Shown piece after piece: positions 2,493-62,991 of a stretch of 64,000 nucleotides of DNA. This stretch comes from a virus. Location: positions 32,001 to 96,000 of the IMG/VR virus record IMGVR_UViG_3300023179_000021; one strand, written 5' to 3'. Under the pieces are notes generated by a model. That model did no database searches. It saw nothing but the letters and a program-made list of their open reading frames with translations, and had not been told where the DNA came from. Position 1 is the stretch's first letter; each line of letters opens with the position of its first letter. A program made the translations under genes and the position numbers.

Positions 2493-3630
2493 CCAAAAAC
2501 AATTTTCTGAAGCTCTTCAATTACTTGATCGTCCTGACCTACCAAAAGAACTCATACCAAATTTAGCCAAGTGCTATTATTACACTTCAAGGGCTCCCGA
2601 GGCTCTTGAATTGTTATTGCCACTGAAGAAAGACGCAGACCTTTGGATTGATACGGCTCTTTATTACAATGCCATAGGAAACCATGATAAGGCTCTTGAA
2701 ATTTATGAGACATTAAATAAAGAAGATTCAAAAGTTGCTTTTAATATAGCCTGGCATTACCTAAGAAACAATGAATTTTCAAAAGGGTTTAAACTCATAC
2801 AAAAAGGGTCTGAAGTAAGATCCTGGGGTCACGAATACCTTCACCTTGAAAATGGCATCGTTCATCCCGAGAACCGATGGAGTGGTCAACAAACCAATCA
2901 TTTAGTTCTTTTACTTGAAGGTGGTCTGGGTGATGAATTTATTTTTTTACGATGGGCCAATTACCTTAAAACAAAATGTAATAAGTTAACCATTCTTTGT
3001 AATCCATCCCTTCTTCGTTTACTGACCAATGCTGGGTATGATGTAATGCCAAGTAGCGCACTGAAAGAATTAGACTACGATCATTATGCACCAAGTATGG
3101 CTTTACCCGATATTCTTGGTTTAAATTCACCACAAGAACATGTCGTTTTTCCTTATATAAAATCCTATGTTGAACCATTTATTACCAAGCAAATGAATAA
3201 AGTAGCGAATGGCCAAAAAAAGATTGGCATTAAATGGTTTGGAAATCCAGAGTTTGAACATGACCAATTTAGAACGGTACCCTCAGATGCACTGAAGGAT
3301 CTTGAAGAATTTGGTCAATTATTTTCTTTACAATTTGAAGATGGTGACCCAAGAATACCAAATTGCCGAGAAATCATTCGAGACTGGCAAGATACCTATT
3401 CGGTCTTTGGTAGTCTTGATTTAATGGTGACCAGTTGTACCAGTACCGCACATTTAGCTGGTGCCATGGGTATACCTGTCATTGTTTTGGTTCCATTAGT
3501 ACCGTATTTTGTATGGGCTTCTGATACAATGCCCTGGTATCCAAAAAATGTAAAGGTTCTCAGACAAACTAAATACAATGACTGGTCTGAAACCTTGAAA
3601 GAACTATACCATGAAATATCAAGAATTTAA
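2449..3630 (+). CDS. TPR-containing glycosyltransferase (GT9/heptosyltransferase-like)
   Basis: N-terminal TPR-like helices, EGGLGDEFIF, LDLMVTSCTSTAHLAGAMGIP. Confidence 0.8.
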   Translation: MDFQAINDQAKNLFDQKQFSEALQLLDRPDLPKELIPNLAKCYYYTSRAPEALELLLPLKKDADLWIDTALYYNAIGNHDKALEIYETLNKEDSKVAFNIAWHYLRNNEFSKGFKLIQKGSEVRSWGHEYLHLENGIVHPENRWSGQQTNHLVLLLEGGLGDEFIFLRWANYLKTKCNKLTILCNPSLLRLLTNAGYDVMPSSALKELDYDHYAPSMALPDILGLNSPQEHVVFPYIKSYVEPFITKQMNKVANGQKKIGIKWFGNPEFEHDQFRTVPSDALKDLEEFGQLFSLQFEDGDPRIPNCREIIRDWQDTYSVFGSLDLMVTSCTSTAHLAGAMGIPVIVLVPLVPYFVWASDTMPWYPKNVKVLRQTKYNDWSETLKELYHEISRI

Positions 3631-4219
3631 ATTATTTCCAACAACTGTCTTGCGTTTTGATTGCTCTGAGGTGATTACAAATGATGATGTAAACGCTATG
3701 ATTTTCGACATTGATAAAATTTGTGACAATGGTAAGTACATACAAGACGATGAAAAAACTCCCAAATATCAAAGTAAACCTATTTTGTTTTTAGATGAAG
3801 CACCAGAAATTTGGCAGAAACTTAAATATACTTTTTTAAATTCTTGCCAACAATATTTACAAACCGTGAATGATTTTGTCAACAATCAAAACTCAATGCA
3901 ATTCACTGGTGCTCGAGCCTGGTTCTACAAGGGCTGGAAATCCTTTAATGTTACACAAACCAACCCATGGCATAATCACAACCCTTCGTTTCTTTCGGGT
4001 GTATTTTATTTAAGTGTTCCTGGAAATGAAAATGAAGGTGGCACCGAATTTATGGACCCAAGACAAAATGAATCTCATGGTGTTCGTAATCAATTTATCG
4101 CACCAATTAATTTAACTTGGGTTATTTTTCCAGGGTGGCTCTATCATCGTTCGAGCTATTGTGATACTGAAACACCTAGGTATGTCATTGCTGCCGATTC
4201 TTATGTAAAAGTGCAATAA
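3611..4219 (+). CDS. putative 2OG-Fe(II) oxygenase (TIGR02466-like)
   Basis: LFPT, WHNH..SFLSGVFYL, IFPGWLYH, RYVIA. Confidence 0.75.
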   Translation: MKYQEFKLFPTTVLRFDCSEVITNDDVNAMIFDIDKICDNGKYIQDDEKTPKYQSKPILFLDEAPEIWQKLKYTFLNSCQQYLQTVNDFVNNQNSMQFTGARAWFYKGWKSFNVTQTNPWHNHNPSFLSGVFYLSVPGNENEGGTEFMDPRQNESHGVRNQFIAPINLTWVIFPGWLYHRSSYCDTETPRYVIAADSYVKVQ

Positions 4220-31550: not shown

Positions 31551-32314
31551 AAAGTTTAACTGAATTTAGGCAAGAACCTCTAACGGAAGAAAAATCAAAT
31601 TATTTAAAGTTTGATATTTTAATTCGTGCTGGTTTAGCTAATAAAGCACAGTTACAAAGAATACATAACATTCTTGATAAAATGCAAGAGGAAAAACCAT
31701 CTTTTAATAACGCCGATAAAATGATTATACAAAATCTTTTTAATAAAATGGCGGATTTGCTTACTTCAAATAAGCAAATTTTTTCACAAGCACGCCGTTC
31801 GGTTAATGAGGGTGTAATTGATACCTCCGATTATAAAGTTTCACCAACAACTGGTAAAAAATATAAAGCTCATCGAATTAATATTTCAAAAACTGGTGAA
31901 GAAGAAAATCTCAAAGAAGAATTAACTAAGTTTGACCCACCTTTTGTTCTTGTATTGAAGCGAAAAGCCATTCGTCTTTATCCTGGCTCTACAAGAATTG
32001 CATTATATTACAGTGATAAATTAAATAAGTATTTTTCTGTACCTTATTCTACCGAAGAAAATCAAAGAGGTGTTGTACAAGCTGAAGATACAATTATGTC
32101 GGTATTAGAATTTGTCAGAGAAAATAAACAACCTCAGACAATTTCATATGGTGAAAATCAAGACATTATAATTGAATATCGAGTAGCTAATGCAATATTA
32201 AAAATTTATGCTTCTTTAAATGACGAAAATAAATTAAAAATTTCTGAGATGATTGAAAAAGGACCTGAGCAATTTAATAAAGTTGCTAGTTTTGCTTTAT
32301 CAAAAATCATATGA
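31547..32314 (+). CDS. hypothetical head-module protein
   Basis: 255-aa ORF between portal and protease. Confidence 0.6.
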   Translation: MKSLTEFRQEPLTEEKSNYLKFDILIRAGLANKAQLQRIHNILDKMQEEKPSFNNADKMIIQNLFNKMADLLTSNKQIFSQARRSVNEGVIDTSDYKVSPTTGKKYKAHRINISKTGEEENLKEELTKFDPPFVLVLKRKAIRLYPGSTRIALYYSDKLNKYFSVPYSTEENQRGVVQAEDTIMSVLEFVRENKQPQTISYGENQDIIIEYRVANAILKIYASLNDENKLKISEMIEKGPEQFNKVASFALSKII

Positions 32315-43151: not shown

Positions 43152-43723
43152 GTGAAGAATTTTTAGTTATTAATACAGAACAATCTTTGGTTAAGCCAAA
43201 AGCATTAGAACCATTGCCATTGTATGATGAAAACTATTCGATGTTGAAACAAAAGATGCCTGATTATACTGGTCAATTACCAAATCAAAATATGACCAAC
43301 CTCATTGAGCGTATGAAAATGACAATGAGAAAGTTTTCGGGCATTGGTCTTTCGGCAAACCAATGTGGTATTATGACCAGAATGTTTATTATTGGGCATG
43401 AAAACTTTGAACTGGTGTGTATCAACCCTAAGGTTCTTGGCCAATCGGCAGAAATAATTAAAGGCGATGAAGGTTGCCTCTCTTTTCCCGGTTTGTTTTG
43501 TAAGATAGAAAGGCCTGCATGGATCGATGTTGAATTTATGAATGAAAAGGGTGAGATTCTACAGACAAGACTTGAGGGTTTAACTGCAAGATGTTATTTA
43601 CATGAACTCGATCACATGAATGGAATTAAATTAATTGACCATGTTGGCCCTGTAGCTTTAAAAATGGCTCGTGAAAAACAAAGAAAACGTATTAAAACAA
43701 TTACTAAACGATTGAAAAAATAA
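43148..43723 (+). CDS. def: peptide deformylase
   Basis: GIGLSANQ, EGCLS, HELDH. Confidence 0.95.
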   Translation: MSEEFLVINTEQSLVKPKALEPLPLYDENYSMLKQKMPDYTGQLPNQNMTNLIERMKMTMRKFSGIGLSANQCGIMTRMFIIGHENFELVCINPKVLGQSAEIIKGDEGCLSFPGLFCKIERPAWIDVEFMNEKGEILQTRLEGLTARCYLHELDHMNGIKLIDHVGPVALKMAREKQRKRIKTITKRLKK

Positions 43724-45000
43724 TGTCTTACTCATTTGACCCTAAAGATGATGTTGATACACAATGGCAAAAATGGCGCGATTCTGGTTTAACTTTTCAA
43801 CAAATCGACGAAGAAAAACTCCGAACTAAAGTAATTGAAGAACTTACTTATGTTTCAAAGATGGATGTTAAAGAGTACACTTTGTATCAGAAATGGTGTG
43901 AGGTGCAAGAAAAATACCCTTCAACTATTATAAATGATTTATGGGAAGGCCAAAAATGTGTTCTGCAAGATGAAGATCAACGCCGCGCTATCGATGAAAT
44001 AAAACGCAATTTTTGGATACCTGAAACATCTGAAGCTTACGAAGCACTAGAACCAGAACTTCTTTACACCAATAAAGAAAAAGGTCTGCCTGAATTGTGG
44101 AATTGTATTCGCACATTCTCTTCAACAATGAAAAACAATTCAAACATCGGCCGTAATCTTAATTTTATTGTGCGTGATCGAATCACTAAGAAATATCTTG
44201 GTGTGATTTGTATTTCATCAGATTTTCTTGACCTCACACCAAGAGATAGGTACATTGGATGGTCAAGAGAATTAAAAACGCAAGGCGGTATGATTAATCA
44301 CACGGCCATCGGTTCAACAATTGTACCTTTGCAACCACTTGGGTTTAATTATGTCGGTGGTAAACTTCTTGCTCTACTTTGTCTTTCGGATCCAATACAA
44401 GAACTTTGGGAGAAATTGTACGGTGATAAGTTGGTGTCTATAACCACCACATCACTCTATGGTAAAACAAAGGCGGATGGTCTATCCCAGTATGACAATC
44501 TAGACTACTGGCAGAAAATGGGATTCACTTCAGGTTCCGTGTCGTATGAACCTACCAATGAAACAAGGTATATGATTCGTGAGTGGCTTAAAACAAATCA
44601 CACACGGAGATACTTTGAATGGTATATTGCGAAGAAACCATCTGGTCAACCACATAAACGTGACCATAAGAATCGTTCATTGACCTTTGCGTATTCTAAA
44701 CTCAATGTACCAAAAGAATTTATTAAATCTGACCATGCTCGTGGTATTTACTGGTGCCCTTTGTATGCTGAATCAGTAGAGTTTCTCCGAGGCGAACATG
44801 ACGGCAAGAATATGAAAAAATGTTTTGATTCTTCGATTCAAGACCTAAGTAATATATGGAAGAATAAACATGCAAGGCCTCGAATTAAACAATTAGTAAA
44901 AAAAGACCGTGTTTCACATGATACTCTTTTCTATGACAATTTGGCAACCTTGTCTTGGGAAGAAGCAAAGTCTATGTATCTTCAACAAGTTGGCAGGTAA
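43723..45000 (+). CDS. DUF4338/DruA-like protein, putative Mom-related GNAT-fold DNA-modifying enzyme
   Basis: GRNLNFIVRD, RDRYIGW, IVPLQPLGFNYVGGKLLA, TTTSLYG, SQY..L..W.KMG.T.G. Confidence 0.6.
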   Translation: MSYSFDPKDDVDTQWQKWRDSGLTFQQIDEEKLRTKVIEELTYVSKMDVKEYTLYQKWCEVQEKYPSTIINDLWEGQKCVLQDEDQRRAIDEIKRNFWIPETSEAYEALEPELLYTNKEKGLPELWNCIRTFSSTMKNNSNIGRNLNFIVRDRITKKYLGVICISSDFLDLTPRDRYIGWSRELKTQGGMINHTAIGSTIVPLQPLGFNYVGGKLLALLCLSDPIQELWEKLYGDKLVSITTTSLYGKTKADGLSQYDNLDYWQKMGFTSGSVSYEPTNETRYMIREWLKTNHTRRYFEWYIAKKPSGQPHKRDHKNRSLTFAYSKLNVPKEFIKSDHARGIYWCPLYAESVEFLRGEHDGKNMKKCFDSSIQDLSNIWKNKHARPRIKQLVKKDRVSHDTLFYDNLATLSWEEAKSMYLQQVGR

Positions 45001-45430
45001 AACCTTTATGAATTTTGTATTTACCTTTAGCCACATTGTACATACAACTTTCATAAAGATTATTTTCTTTACAGAATTTTTTAAGATTTTTAACCTTTTC
45101 GGTTTTACCGTCAGGAAAAGTTACTAACCAATTTTTCGAAAGTGTGTTTGCTATTTTATTTTTTTGTATTTGACTGTTTGGGATGCCTTTGTTCCAGGTT
45201 GTAATTCCTTTCAGAGCGAGACTTATTTTATCTTTAGATTCTTGTGTGTGTTTTTTGCCCAGATTAAGTTCTCTTAAGATTTGTTTTGTTGATTCGTGGA
45301 GTTTTTCTCCTTTAATTGCACCTCGATAAGACCAAACAGCATCATTTGGAATTTCTATTGGATTGTTTTTGATCCATTCACGCAGTTCTGTGGTCCAATC
45401 ATCATCTAGATTGTGAGAATAAATACTCAT
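44972..45430 (-). CDS. NUMOD3-repeat DNA-binding protein (homing-endonuclease-derived; no recognisable nuclease domain)
   Basis: GKKHTQESKDKIS, WNKG, C-terminal NLKKFCKENNL...HKGF. Start moved to ATG 45430, after SD AAGGA. Confidence 0.7.
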   Translation of the reverse strand: MSIYSHNLDDDWTTELREWIKNNPIEIPNDAVWSYRGAIKGEKLHESTKQILRELNLGKKHTQESKDKISLALKGITTWNKGIPNSQIQKNKIANTLSKNWLVTFPDGKTEKVKNLKKFCKENNLYESCMYNVAKGKYKIHKGFTCQLVEDT

Positions 45431-45508
45431 GCTGACATTCCTTACTAATGTTAGAGTGGGTGCAGACGGCAATCTGGCGACCCACACCTATATATGCCGT
45501 TAAAACTC

Positions 45509-45537
45509 TTGACAAATTACATATATATTAGTATAGT
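45509..45537 (+). promoter_or_regulatory. sigma70 promoter driving the tRNA-like RNA
   Basis: TTGACA-17 nt-TATAGT; expected +1 is 2-3 nt before the RNA. Confidence 0.8.
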
Positions 45538-45545
45538 CCAAATAT

Positions 45546-45611
45546 GCGGTGAGTCCGAGACAGCTTACCTTCCCAGTAGGCAGAGAGGTTTAACTCCTCT
45601 GAACCGCTCCA
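45546..45611 (+). tRNA. atypical tRNA-Gly(TCC) with a reduced D-arm
   Basis: GCGGT/ACCGC acceptor stem, U73, encoded CCA; anticodon stem GCTTAC/GTAGGC with loop CTTCCCA; T-arm AGAGG-TTTAACT-CCTCT; mini D hairpin GTC-CGA-GAC. Confidence 0.75.
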
Positions 45612-45647
45612 CTTCTGTTGTATAAAAACAACAAAAAAGTTTAATGA

Positions 45648-45660
45648 AATCAATGACTTA
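45648..45660 (+). promoter_or_regulatory. IHF-binding consensus site
   Basis: AATCAATGACTTA matches WATCAANNNNTTR, with an upstream A-tract, 8 nt before a -35 box. Confidence 0.55.
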
Positions 45661-45668
45661 CAAAGCGC

Positions 45669-45697
45669 TTGACAAATCACTGCGGCTAGAGTAAGAT
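45669..45697 (+). promoter_or_regulatory. sigma70 early promoter
   Basis: TTGACA-17 nt-TAAGAT. Confidence 0.75.
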
Positions 45698-48062: not shown

Positions 48063-48084
48063 TGTTGTTTTTATGCAACAGGGC

Positions 48085-61336: not shown

Positions 61337-61640
61337 AGAAAACAAAGACTTTCACTATATAAACTTCAATAACACTGACGTAACAGGTATTGAATTGTTA
61401 ATGTCGGAGTTTCGCGGTGTTATTTATCATTATGATAAAGCCAGTGTTACTGAAGAAGGTGAAATTGCTCGTTTGAAATTCGGTTATACTGTGGTTCATC
61501 CAGGTGAACATGACATAGATGACTTGAATTCTAACGAAAAATTTCATACAATAATGGGTGACCTGTTGACCCAAATTTTAATGGCTAAAATAGAAGATGA
61601 GACTAGAGACCAGTATTCTAAAAAATTTAATATTCAATGA
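61329..61640 (+). CDS. gp40-like protein
   Basis: Between uvsX and gp41 as in T4; F.GVIY.Y..., L.F.Y. Confidence 0.55.
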   Translation: MLEENKDFHYINFNNTDVTGIELLMSEFRGVIYHYDKASVTEEGEIARLKFGYTVVHPGEHDIDDLNSNEKFHTIMGDLLTQILMAKIEDETRDQYSKKFNIQ

Positions 61641-62991
61641 GGAATTTACTCGTAAAGTATTGCCATTTATTCAATCAGAATATTTCGCCGACAACAAAGA
61701 TAAAACACTTTTTAACTTTGTTTCACAATTTGTCAATAAATATAAAACATTGCCAACTTATGAATCTCTTGTTATTGAATTAAATAACTCAAAAAAACTT
61801 ACCGATCAAGAATTAAAAAATACTTTAAATTTACTTGATGAAATAAATCAAAACAAAAGCGAGCCTACAGAGTTACAGTGGTTAATTGAACAAACCGAAA
61901 AGTTTTGCCAAGACAAGGCGATTTATAATGCCATTATGGAATCGGTAACAATACTTGATTCTAAAAACACAAACAAGGACAAGGGTGAAATCCCTAAGTT
62001 ATTATCAAATGCGCTTGGTGTTTCTTTTGATTCTCATATTGGCCACGATTATATTAATGACTACGATTCCCGTTTCGAATTTTACCACCGACAAGAAACT
62101 AGAATATCATTTGATTTAGACCTTTTTAATACAATCACCAAAGGTGGTCTACCAAATAAAACACTCAATATTTGTCTTGCTGGGACCGGCGTTGGCAAAT
62201 CAATGTTTATGTGTCATGTGGCTGCATCTTGTTTATCTCAGGGCTTGAATGTTCTTTATATTACACTTGAGATGGCCGAAGAAAGAATCGCCGAGCGTAT
62301 TGATGCCAATCTTTTAAATGTATCAATGAACGATCTACATTCTATGACAAAATTGGAGTATGATCGTAAGTTTCAATCATTGCGAAATAAAACACAAGGC
62401 AAACTTATCATCAAAGAATATCCAACGGCGGCAGCCAATGCACTACACTTTCGTTCGTTGCTAAATGAATTGCACCTTAAAAAGAATTTCGTGCCGCAAA
62501 TTATCTTTATTGATTATCTGAATATCTGTTCTTCGGCTCGCATTAAACCTGGTGCCAATGTTAATTCTTATTCTTATATCAAGGCGATTGCAGAAGAACT
62601 CCGTGGTCTTGCTGTTGAATTTAATTTACCTATTGTTTCAGCGACACAAACAACAAGGTCGGGCTATACAAACACTGACATTGGTCTTGAAGATACTTCC
62701 GAATCTTTTGGTCTGCCTGCAACCGCTGATTTTATGTTTGCTCTAATTTCAACAGAAGAATTAGAACAATTAAATCAAATCATGGTCAAACAATTAAAGA
62801 ATCGATATGCTGATCCAAATTTTAATAAAAGGTTTGTAATCGGCGTTGATCGTTCGAAGATGAAGTTGTATGATGTTGAACAATTGGCACAAACTGGTAT
62901 TGTAGATTCTGGCCAAGATGATCCGCCGCTAAATACTTTTGGAAACCGTGAAAGTAAATTCAATCGTAAGTTTGAAGGCTTTAAAGTATGA
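61597..62991 (+). CDS. gp41: replicative helicase gp41 (DnaB-like)
   Basis: AGTGVGKS, ITLEMAEE, IDYLNI, SATQTTR, SESFGLPATAD. Confidence 0.96.
   Translation: MRLETSILKNLIFNEEFTRKVLPFIQSEYFADNKDKTLFNFVSQFVNKYKTLPTYESLVIELNNSKKLTDQELKNTLNLLDEINQNKSEPTELQWLIEQTEKFCQDKAIYNAIMESVTILDSKNTNKDKGEIPKLLSNALGVSFDSHIGHDYINDYDSRFEFYHRQETRISFDLDLFNTITKGGLPNKTLNICLAGTGVGKSMFMCHVAASCLSQGLNVLYITLEMAEERIAERIDANLLNVSMNDLHSMTKLEYDRKFQSLRNKTQGKLIIKEYPTAAANALHFRSLLNELHLKKNFVPQIIFIDYLNICSSARIKPGANVNSYSYIKAIAEELRGLAVEFNLPIVSATQTTRSGYTNTDIGLEDTSESFGLPATADFMFALISTEELEQLNQIMVKQLKNRYADPNFNKRFVIGVDRSKMKLYDVEQLAQTGIVDSGQDDPPLNTFGNRESKFNRKFEGFKV

Follow-up and report, generated by a model that had tools for sequence, protein, structure and literature searches.

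A miniature tRNA-Gly-like RNA next to a DruA-family acyltransferase gene in a T4-like phage: a candidate glycyl carrier outside translation

Why would a lytic phage keep a 66-nucleotide (nt) RNA that retains the acceptor end of a glycine tRNA and has lost several features of a decoding tRNA? This question is raised by a locus of the IMG/VR virus record IMGVR_UViG_3300023179_000021 (145.6 kb), which represents a T4-like phage that has cyanophages and Pelagibacter phage HTVC008M among its distant relatives. The stretch analysed here, called the window, covers 64,000 nt (positions 32,001 to 96,000 of this record). It carries this RNA downstream of orf425, a gene encoding a GNAT acyltransferase of the DruA/DUF4338 family. 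It is proposed that the RNA would be a private glycyl carrier, excluded from the ribosome and serving the adjacent enzyme, a reading to which a probability of about 0.5 is given from comparisons of sequences and structures.

An earlier note on this DNA, made from its letters alone, had described the RNA as a tRNA-Gly(UCC) with a collapsed D arm, and every feature that it listed is present. The RNA reads GCGGUGA GUCCGAGAC A GCUUAC CUUCCCA GUAGGC AG AGAGG UUUAACU CCUCU GAACCGC U CCA. Its acceptor stem consists of five Watson-Crick pairs (G1-C72, C2-G71, G3-C70, G4-C69 and U5-A68) and of the tandem G6.A67 and A7.G66, and it is continued by U73 and an encoded CCA. The D arm is replaced by a hairpin of 3 base pairs (bp) and 3 nt, GUCCGAGAC, without GG. 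The anticodon-like stem has 6 bp, one of them G.U, and bears the 7-nt loop CUUCCCA, the “variable region” is reduced to the 2 nt AG, the T stem includes A49-U65 and A51-U63, and the T loop UUUAACU has a U at position 56. The minimum free energy (MFE) structure given by RNAfold is exactly this miniature cloverleaf (-20.4 kcal/mol). As a single sequence, it barely beats its shuffles (z -1.72; 9 of 200 shuffles fold equally well), so that the case for a real RNA rests on its homologues. The same note had expected standard tRNA finders to miss the RNA, and they do. ARAGORN, in its default and -ps modes, finds no tRNA at this site or elsewhere in the window, and its sole call across the whole record is a tRNA-Met(CAT); the metazoan-mitochondrial mode alone gives a D-loop tRNA-Gly(tcc) at the site. 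Searching 251 nt with Rfam returned nothing at gathering thresholds and no match to the tRNA model (RF00005) at E<=10. A covariance model of the RNA finds a single copy in the record.

Relatives were first collected through loci of the peptidase protein encoded downstream, and the RNA occupies the same place in most of them. An IMG/VR search with a 15-base pattern from the 5' part of the RNA matched at least 119 contigs. After de-replication, the matches listed give 79 distinct contexts, the scope that applies wherever 79 contexts are counted below. All their RNAs lie between orf425 and the peptidase gene, and the flanking proteins range from 43 to 96% identity. The RNAs fall into several body types, and 44 distinct sequences of type 1 were aligned. 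In this alignment, 91.6% of the cells are paired and nine pairs change on both sides. Such double-sided changes affect four pairs of the anticodon-like stem and four pairs of the T stem, and the acceptor pair 5:68 alternates between U-A (28 sequences) and A-U (16 sequences). The covariation score is 0.300 versus 0.098 for shuffles, none of 500 reaching it, and at most 0.089 for slid registers. The hairpin replacing the D arm is invariant, so that covariation neither supports nor contradicts it. In the T stem, pair 51:63 is A-U in 40 sequences, U-A in four and never G-C, pair 49:65 is mostly A-U and pair 50:64 is C-G or G-C, a composition that would be compatible with weak binding by EF-Tu.

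The compensatory changes that the earlier note had suggested looking for thus exist. Together with its recurrence at this position in more than 100 related contigs, they indicate that the RNA is real, functional and under selection. Its promoter is conserved as well, since each of the 64 distinct upstream contexts of homologues has a -10 element 8-12 nt upstream of G1, and 35 of them have at least 10 of the 12 sigma-70 consensus matches. Along with the true tRNA-Gly(UCC) found at the same place in two relatives (see below), these data bear out the claim of functional specialisation rather than decay. The location of the RNA between two same-strand genes could also fit a tRNA-like processing signal, i.e., an RNase P/RNase Z punctuation between the orf425 and peptidase transcripts, or a slowly decaying relic. 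tRNA-like punctuation is known in other systems. This explanation is very improbable here: the RNA is directly preceded by a promoter of its own, distinct from that of the next gene, compensatory changes hold three stems, the invariant CCA, U73 and loop CC are not required for punctuation, and the RNA has been relocated in related phages yet kept.

Other interpretations of the site were considered. Two short open reading frames overlap the RNA (45494-45625 on the plus strand and 45528-45680 on the minus strand), but a coding explanation was rejected because loop length differs by 2, 3 or 5 nt among homologues and because of the paired compensatory changes. An attP or integration-site reading is unlikely, no annotated integrase-like gene being found near the locus and the genome being T4-like. 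A host-borne homologue, i.e., a bacterial origin, was dropped, a 24-base pattern of the family having no match among 185,579 bacterial and archaeal species genomes. When the locus was compared with GenBank phages, megablast found no match, and distant blastn gave chance matches only. The exact anticodon-arm pattern had 0 matches in IMG/VR, this loop variant being rare.

Two relatives (L022 and L028) carry at the homologous position an ordinary tRNA-Gly(UCC), with D-loop GG and the T loop UUCGAUU, that is called by ARAGORN. This indicates that the RNA is derived from a tRNA-Gly(UCC) gene. Among the type-1 sequences, 39 of 44 are 63 nt long, with a 5-bp stem closed by a CCCA or CCCC tetraloop, while the 7-nt loop CUUCCCA occurs once; when all types are pooled, a 7-nt middle loop is found in just three of 75 variants. 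In type 2 RNAs, the D arm is truncated, the T loop is UGCGAAU and the conserved loop UGUCCAA has G33 instead of the U33 of a tRNA; type 3 RNAs have the loop UACCC, and several further reduced body types occur in other relatives. Types 2 and 3 are intermediate forms. The middle loop contains CC in 73 of the 75 variants, the rest being misfolded MFE structures in which CCC is nonetheless visible, or two chance matches.

Could the RNA be an ordinary, if eccentric, elongator tRNA-Gly(UCC) supplementing the translation of GGA and GGG, a common role of phage tRNAs? The window copy does have a 7-nt loop with U33 and UCC, a standard tRNA-Gly(UCC) stands in the same place in relatives, and the version of phage HTVC008M is still called a tRNA by ARAGORN. 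Against this, the tetraloop dominates type 1, the elbow contact between G18G19 and C56 is missing, position 37, expected to be a purine, is a C, the Rfam tRNA model finds no match even at the permissive threshold mentioned above and type 2 relatives keep G33 instead of U33. Furthermore, phages with the odd RNA can also have normal tRNA-Gly genes. For example, the type-3 RNA of one relative lies inside a cluster of ten tRNAs, beside a normal tRNA-Gly(GCC) and a normal tRNA-Gly(UCC), so that the odd RNA would be an extra species and not the tRNA-Gly with which this phage decodes. An elongator role is therefore most improbable, and the replacement of the anticodon loop by a tetraloop in 39 of the 44 sequences indicates that the family is unable to decode codons. 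In this respect the label of tRNA-Gly(UCC) given in the earlier note, taken as that of a decoder, does not stand, UCC being peculiar to the window copy.

Several relatives carry two Gly-like RNAs in tandem, 4-10 nt apart (L007:847-986; also L184, L185, L198 and L147). Each pair combines an RNA of type 1 or 3, bearing a CCC(C) loop, with one of type 2, which has UGUCCAA and the T loop UGCGAAU. This arrangement suggests two functionally distinct carrier species.

G1-C72, C2-G71, G3-C70, U73 and the encoded CCA are kept across all types (44/44 in type 1), a part of the set having been gathered by a pattern that requires GCG..CGCUCCA. The D-loop GG, the T-loop C56 and, in most members, the 7-nt anticodon loop are lost. 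The glycine identity set of bacteria consists of U73, G1-C72, C2-G71, C35 and C36 (PMC9976931), and the kept features match it. Judging from this match, loading of the RNA with glycine by glycyl-tRNA synthetase (GlyRS) is probably still possible. The phage record encodes no GlyQ, the alpha subunit of GlyRS, so that the enzyme of the host would be the one to charge the RNA.

The RNA follows orf425 directly in 79 of the 79 distinct contexts. Apart from an inserted NUMOD3/HNH-like gene (see below), it begins 5-70 nt past the stop codon of orf425. Orthologues of orf425 were also gathered by protein alone, in a locus search with 18 closer sequences. Nearly all of those that are at least 62% identical and have enough flank show a GCGG...CCGCUCCA RNA 5-70 nt downstream. 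The exceptions are three loci whose immediate downstream sequence differs, as it does with the HNH-type insert of the window, one locus where the RNA is cut by the contig end and two with none nearby. In the clade with 59-62% identity, no RNA is adjacent, and Gly-type RNAs lie 7-15 kb away in four of the five larger contigs.

The same components are found in cultured phages. In HTVC008M, the orf425 orthologue gp106 is located directly before the peptidase and cobS genes, and right after cobS lies an unannotated 74-nt tRNA-Gly(ACC)-like RNA (NC_020484.1, 91140-91213; L252:1641-1714) with the T loop AGCGUUA and no D-loop GG; it is this RNA that ARAGORN calls a tRNA. HTVC008M is listed with 0 tRNAs (PMC7029224). 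In the same way, Mosig carries an unannotated 74-nt tRNA-Gly(ACC)-like RNA (MT647606.1, 7779-7852, minus strand; L253:980-1053) with the T loop GGCAGUA and no D-loop GG. It lies under the annotated “hypothetical protein” Mosig_000011, a coding sequence that is probably spurious.

Conversely, the relatives devoid of the RNA (L016, L018, L019 and L029) are also devoid of orf425; when a DruA-family gene and a Gly-like RNA were searched for in their contigs, neither was found. In these relatives the slot holds a gene for a 143-residue GNAT (PF00583) and one for a protein of about 525 residues (L016:805-2828, L018:902-2907), whose C-terminus resembles half of an N6_N4_Mtase domain (E about 1e-5, just below the Pfam cut-off). 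This GNAT and methylase-like pair may be an alternative DNA-modification cassette. One of these relatives (G007) keeps a 71%-identical homologue of a 464-residue protein encoded further downstream in the window and lacks orf425, the RNA and the second DruA-family gene. This pattern of presence and absence is consistent with a swappable DNA-modification cassette.

These data also bear on another explanation, that of a decoy or sponge. The RNA would mimic the acceptor end of tRNA-Gly and soak up a host factor attacking (Gly-)tRNA-Gly, such as GNAT toxins of the TacT/AtaT2 type or acceptor-stem nucleases, thus sparing the decoding tRNAs of the host. Acceptor end and discriminator alone are invariant, the strong early-type promoter would give a high copy number and the body evolves fast, as expected if the RNA need only be bound; TacT reads U73 and G71, which occur together in tRNA-Gly only (PMC9976931). 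However, a decoy leaves unexplained the joint gain and loss with orf425, the methylase-like cassette in the alternative slot and the CC of the middle loop, which matters for GlyRS and not for acceptor-end binders, and the likely hosts are not known to have such a toxin. This explanation is thus considered rather unlikely.

The nature of the orf425 product was examined at both sequence and structure levels. It matches the Pfam family PF14236 (DruA) with an E-value of 7e-20 and 71.8 bits, the curated cut-off being 27, as well as the PADLOC DruA model (E 4.8e-18). DUF4338 was described as a GNAT domain by Aravind's group (PMC10853773). The AlphaFold2 model, built with 69 diverse homologues, has a pLDDT (predicted local distance difference test) of 94.8. 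When the whole model was used in an exhaustive structural search of 48,161 solved chains, Mom of phage Mu (8bv8_B) came first, with Z 9.7 and a root-mean-square deviation (rmsd) of 4.2 over 174 aligned residues. Mom was again first when the search was limited to the domain formed by residues 104-360 (Z 12.3, rmsd 3.9, 170 of 202 residues aligned), the best ordinary GNAT having Z 11.4 with 140 residues and FemA of S. aureus Z 10.6. Foldseek against the PDB gave weak GNAT matches only (E>=0.012), and NCBIfam had no match. Sequence comparisons gave no link to Mom: hhalign against Mu Mom alone detected no homology to orf425, and phmmer and a 69-sequence profile returned chance matches only from PDB sequences, Mom not being among them. 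From the model, orf425 is thus best described as a GNAT of the DruA family to which Mom is the closest of the solved structures, and not as a member of the Mom family.

Under the carrier reading, RNase P would trim the transcript if a short leader is present, host GlyRS would charge the RNA with glycine, and EF-Tu and the ribosome would ignore the charged RNA, so that its glycine would not be drained into translation. The orf425 enzyme would then take the glycyl group from the 3' end of the RNA and transfer it to an acceptor. The likeliest acceptor would be the N6 of adenine in phage DNA, as with Mu Mom, and the modified DNA would be protected from host nucleases.

Several points weigh against this proposal. 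The lead of Mom over ordinary acetyl-CoA GNATs is less than 1 Z, i.e., a tie. When a DruA-like profile was compared by hhalign with a 31-sequence Mom profile, the probability was 0.2%, and PF25680 (Mom) was not found in the phage genome; membership of orf425 in the Mom family by sequence was rejected on these two grounds. A motif-A-like loop (Q204-P-x-G207 ... G212-G213-K214) is conserved in the DruA family at the beta4-alpha3 position, so that the donor may still be an acyl-CoA. The co-occurrence of the RNA with orf425 is largely vertical synteny within one phage group, and the cases of absence come from about two lineages, in contigs that are 5-27% complete. The presentation of the tetraloop CC to the anticodon-binding domain of GlyRS is only presumed. 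Lastly, SAR11-type hosts are reported to have few restriction systems (PMC7029224), so that a host of this type would make the anti-restriction rationale weaker.

Two of these points, the motif-A-like loop and the closeness of generic acetyl-CoA GNATs to Mom, would suit a different relationship between the two partners, in which the RNA is a substrate or a regulator of orf425. An acyl-CoA GNAT would acylate either the RNA or the glycine that it carries once charged; alternatively, the RNA would inhibit the enzyme as an RNA antitoxin does. GNAT toxins acetylating Gly-tRNAGly do exist (PMC9976931). However, there is no obvious gain for a lytic phage in N-acylating a private non-decoding RNA, orf425 is part of an operon for DNA metabolism (SbcCD-like genes, peptide deformylase), and the structural match to Mom not only ranks first but also aligns 25-30 residues more than that to any CoA enzyme. 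The probability of such a relationship is regarded as low, and the role of glycyl carrier is preferred.

The features of the locus are collected in Table 1. The genes are ordered as follows: SbcD-like, SbcC-like, peptide deformylase, orf425, the antisense NUMOD3/HNH-like gene, the RNA, a gene for a 778-residue CobT-like “peptidase” and one for a CobS-like AAA protein. The NUMOD3/HNH-like gene overlaps the 3' end of orf425 by 29 nt. It looks like a recent mobile insertion, since it is present in just two of the 79 contexts, among the matches listed (L037 and L132). The hairpin downstream of the RNA is conserved, the motif TGTTGY-N(4-9)-RCAACA being found in 68 of 75 downstream contexts; among relatives L002-L034, it also occurs where the RNA is absent, and in the window it recurs at about 48063-48080. 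Having no U tract, it is not a classical terminator; it may be a site of 3' processing, of termination or of protein binding. The second DruA-family gene encodes a protein sharing 36% identity with orf425 over the core. It overlaps the stop codon of the upstream gene for the 464-residue protein (61597-62991), and no RNA lies beside it.

Table 1. Position in the window of the RNA, of its parts and of the surrounding features
Feature	Position	Strand	Basis or remark
tRNA-Gly-derived, predicted non-decoding tRNA-like RNA, 66 nt	45546..45611	+	sequence, fold, homologue alignment, covariance model
Acceptor stem of the RNA	45546-52/45601-07	+	
D-replacement hairpin	45553-61	+	
Anticodon-like stem-loop	45563-81	+	
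Loop CUUCCCA, reads UCC with C37	45569..45575	+	rare 7-nt variant of the CCCA/CCCC tetraloop; only CC(C) conserved
T arm	45584-45600	+	
U73	45608	+	
Encoded CCA	45609-11	+	
Dedicated sigma-70-type promoter of the RNA, TTGACA-17-TATAGT	45509..45537	+	11/12 consensus matches; -10 ends 8 nt before G1
Conserved hairpin TGTTGT-N6-ACAACA	45616..45633	+	between the RNA and the next promoter
Second promoter	45669-45697		serves the next gene
orf425, DruA/DUF4338-family GNAT acyltransferase, proposed partner	43723..45000	+	Pfam, PADLOC, AlphaFold2 model
NUMOD3/HNH-type homing-endonuclease-like gene	44972..45487	-	separates orf425 from the RNA; outside the system
Second DruA-family paralogue, 371 residues	62988..64000, past the window end to C1:96103	+	PF14236, 41.1 bits

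If the proposal is true, the RNA would be the first virus-encoded private aminoacyl carrier, and it would reveal to what extent a tRNA can be reduced without losing its ability to be charged. The dependence of a DNA modification on a tRNA was not established before 2026, and then for a single enzyme, which uses the tRNA of its host (PMC13219725), and staphylococci are the only organisms in which tRNAs dedicated to non-translational roles have been reported (PMC7826273). The proposal would also provide a testable activity for the DUF4338/DruA family, including the defence protein of Druantia, and account for RNAs overlooked by annotation, such as those of HTVC008M, listed with 0 tRNAs, and of Mosig, hidden under a “hypothetical protein”. 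As these two cultured Pelagibacter phages have both components, the idea is directly testable.

No publication describing this RNA was found in the literature, and its closest known counterparts differ from it in various ways. Armless mitochondrial tRNAs and small RNAs of the mascRNA type likewise form a miniature cloverleaf in which a replacement loop stands for the D arm. Decoding through a 7-nt anticodon loop persists in the mitochondrial tRNAs, and mascRNA, a eukaryotic RNA, is not known to be aminoacylated.

The non-proteogenic tRNA-Gly of staphylococci (NP1-NP3), glycine donors for FmhB, FemA and FemB that are known only in these bacteria (PMC7826273), had been brought forward in the earlier note. 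In terms of function they are the closest precedent. Like the phage RNA as it is proposed here, they are extra species that GlyRS can charge, they have lost D- and T-loop features needed in translation, and their partner is an aminoacyl-transferase of GNAT fold acting outside translation. They also carry weak EF-Tu pairs in the T stem, as the phage RNA may do. However, they are full-size and chromosomal, with a normal UCC anticodon loop, and the Fem ligases act on peptidoglycan precursors, whereas the phage RNAs are phage-encoded, have 63-68 nt and usually bear a tetraloop for anticodon loop. The Fem family (PF02388/FemAB) was not found in the phage genome, and the RNA is absent from the species genomes searched. 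The comparison thus holds as an analogy of function and not as one of descent.

On the side of the enzyme, orf425 and its paralogue belong to the same Pfam family (PF14236) as DruA of type I Druantia, with scores above the curated cut-off. DruA sits in the druABCDE operon, while orf425 belongs to a lytic phage and lies among SbcCD-like, peptide deformylase and CobT/CobS-like genes. A search of the literature gave no published biochemical function of DruA. A wider proposal, put forward tentatively, is that a virus-encoded carrier holding little beyond the GlyRS identity set (63-68 nt) would feed a DruA-family GNAT that hypermodifies phage DNA and that, by extension, DruA of type I Druantia might be an aminoacyl-tRNA-dependent enzyme modifying nucleic acids, which would offer a biochemical entry point to this defence system.

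In Mom-bearing loci too, tRNA-Gly genes were observed. Eighty IMG/VR loci with true Mom (PF25680) genes (408 kb) contain four tRNAs according to ARAGORN, three of which are tRNA-Gly(UCC) lying 120-200 nt upstream of mom on the same strand (L302:2806-2879, L305:2800-2873 and L307:2724-2797). Decayed or partial copies of tRNA-Gly occur at the same spot near mom in related loci (L297, L303, L304, L308 and L292-L295). These genes could be phage-borne and serve Mom, or be remnants of integration into a host tRNA-Gly gene. Besides, a phage-like 66-kb Logan contig (L241) carries a distant DruA-like gene (3001-4212, 31% identity to orf425) and a PF25680 Mom gene (7041-end), 3 kb apart on the same strand; no tRNA was found in the 7 kb read.

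As regards the enzyme, the closest precedent is Mom. Mu Mom transfers glycine from Gly-tRNAGly to the N6 of adenine in double-stranded DNA, a rearrangement then giving 6-NcmdA (Silva et al., Nat Commun 2026, PMC13219725; preprint 10.1101/2023.03.24.534169). It accepts all three tRNA-Gly isoacceptors of E. coli and not Gly-tRNAAla, recognition being thought to take place at the acceptor end (PMC13219725). This presumed recognition site is exactly the invariant part of the RNA described here. Mom, a phage GNAT that has a helical insertion, gives the best structural match to orf425, generic GNATs following within 1 Z. The two share no detectable sequence homology. The Mom family (PF25680) is marked by the catalytic residues R111/S124/D149/R151, and orf425 is a protein of 425 residues with extra N- and C-terminal domains. 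Finally, Mu relies on the tRNA-Gly of its host and has no carrier of its own, whereas here the putative carrier is encoded by the phage.

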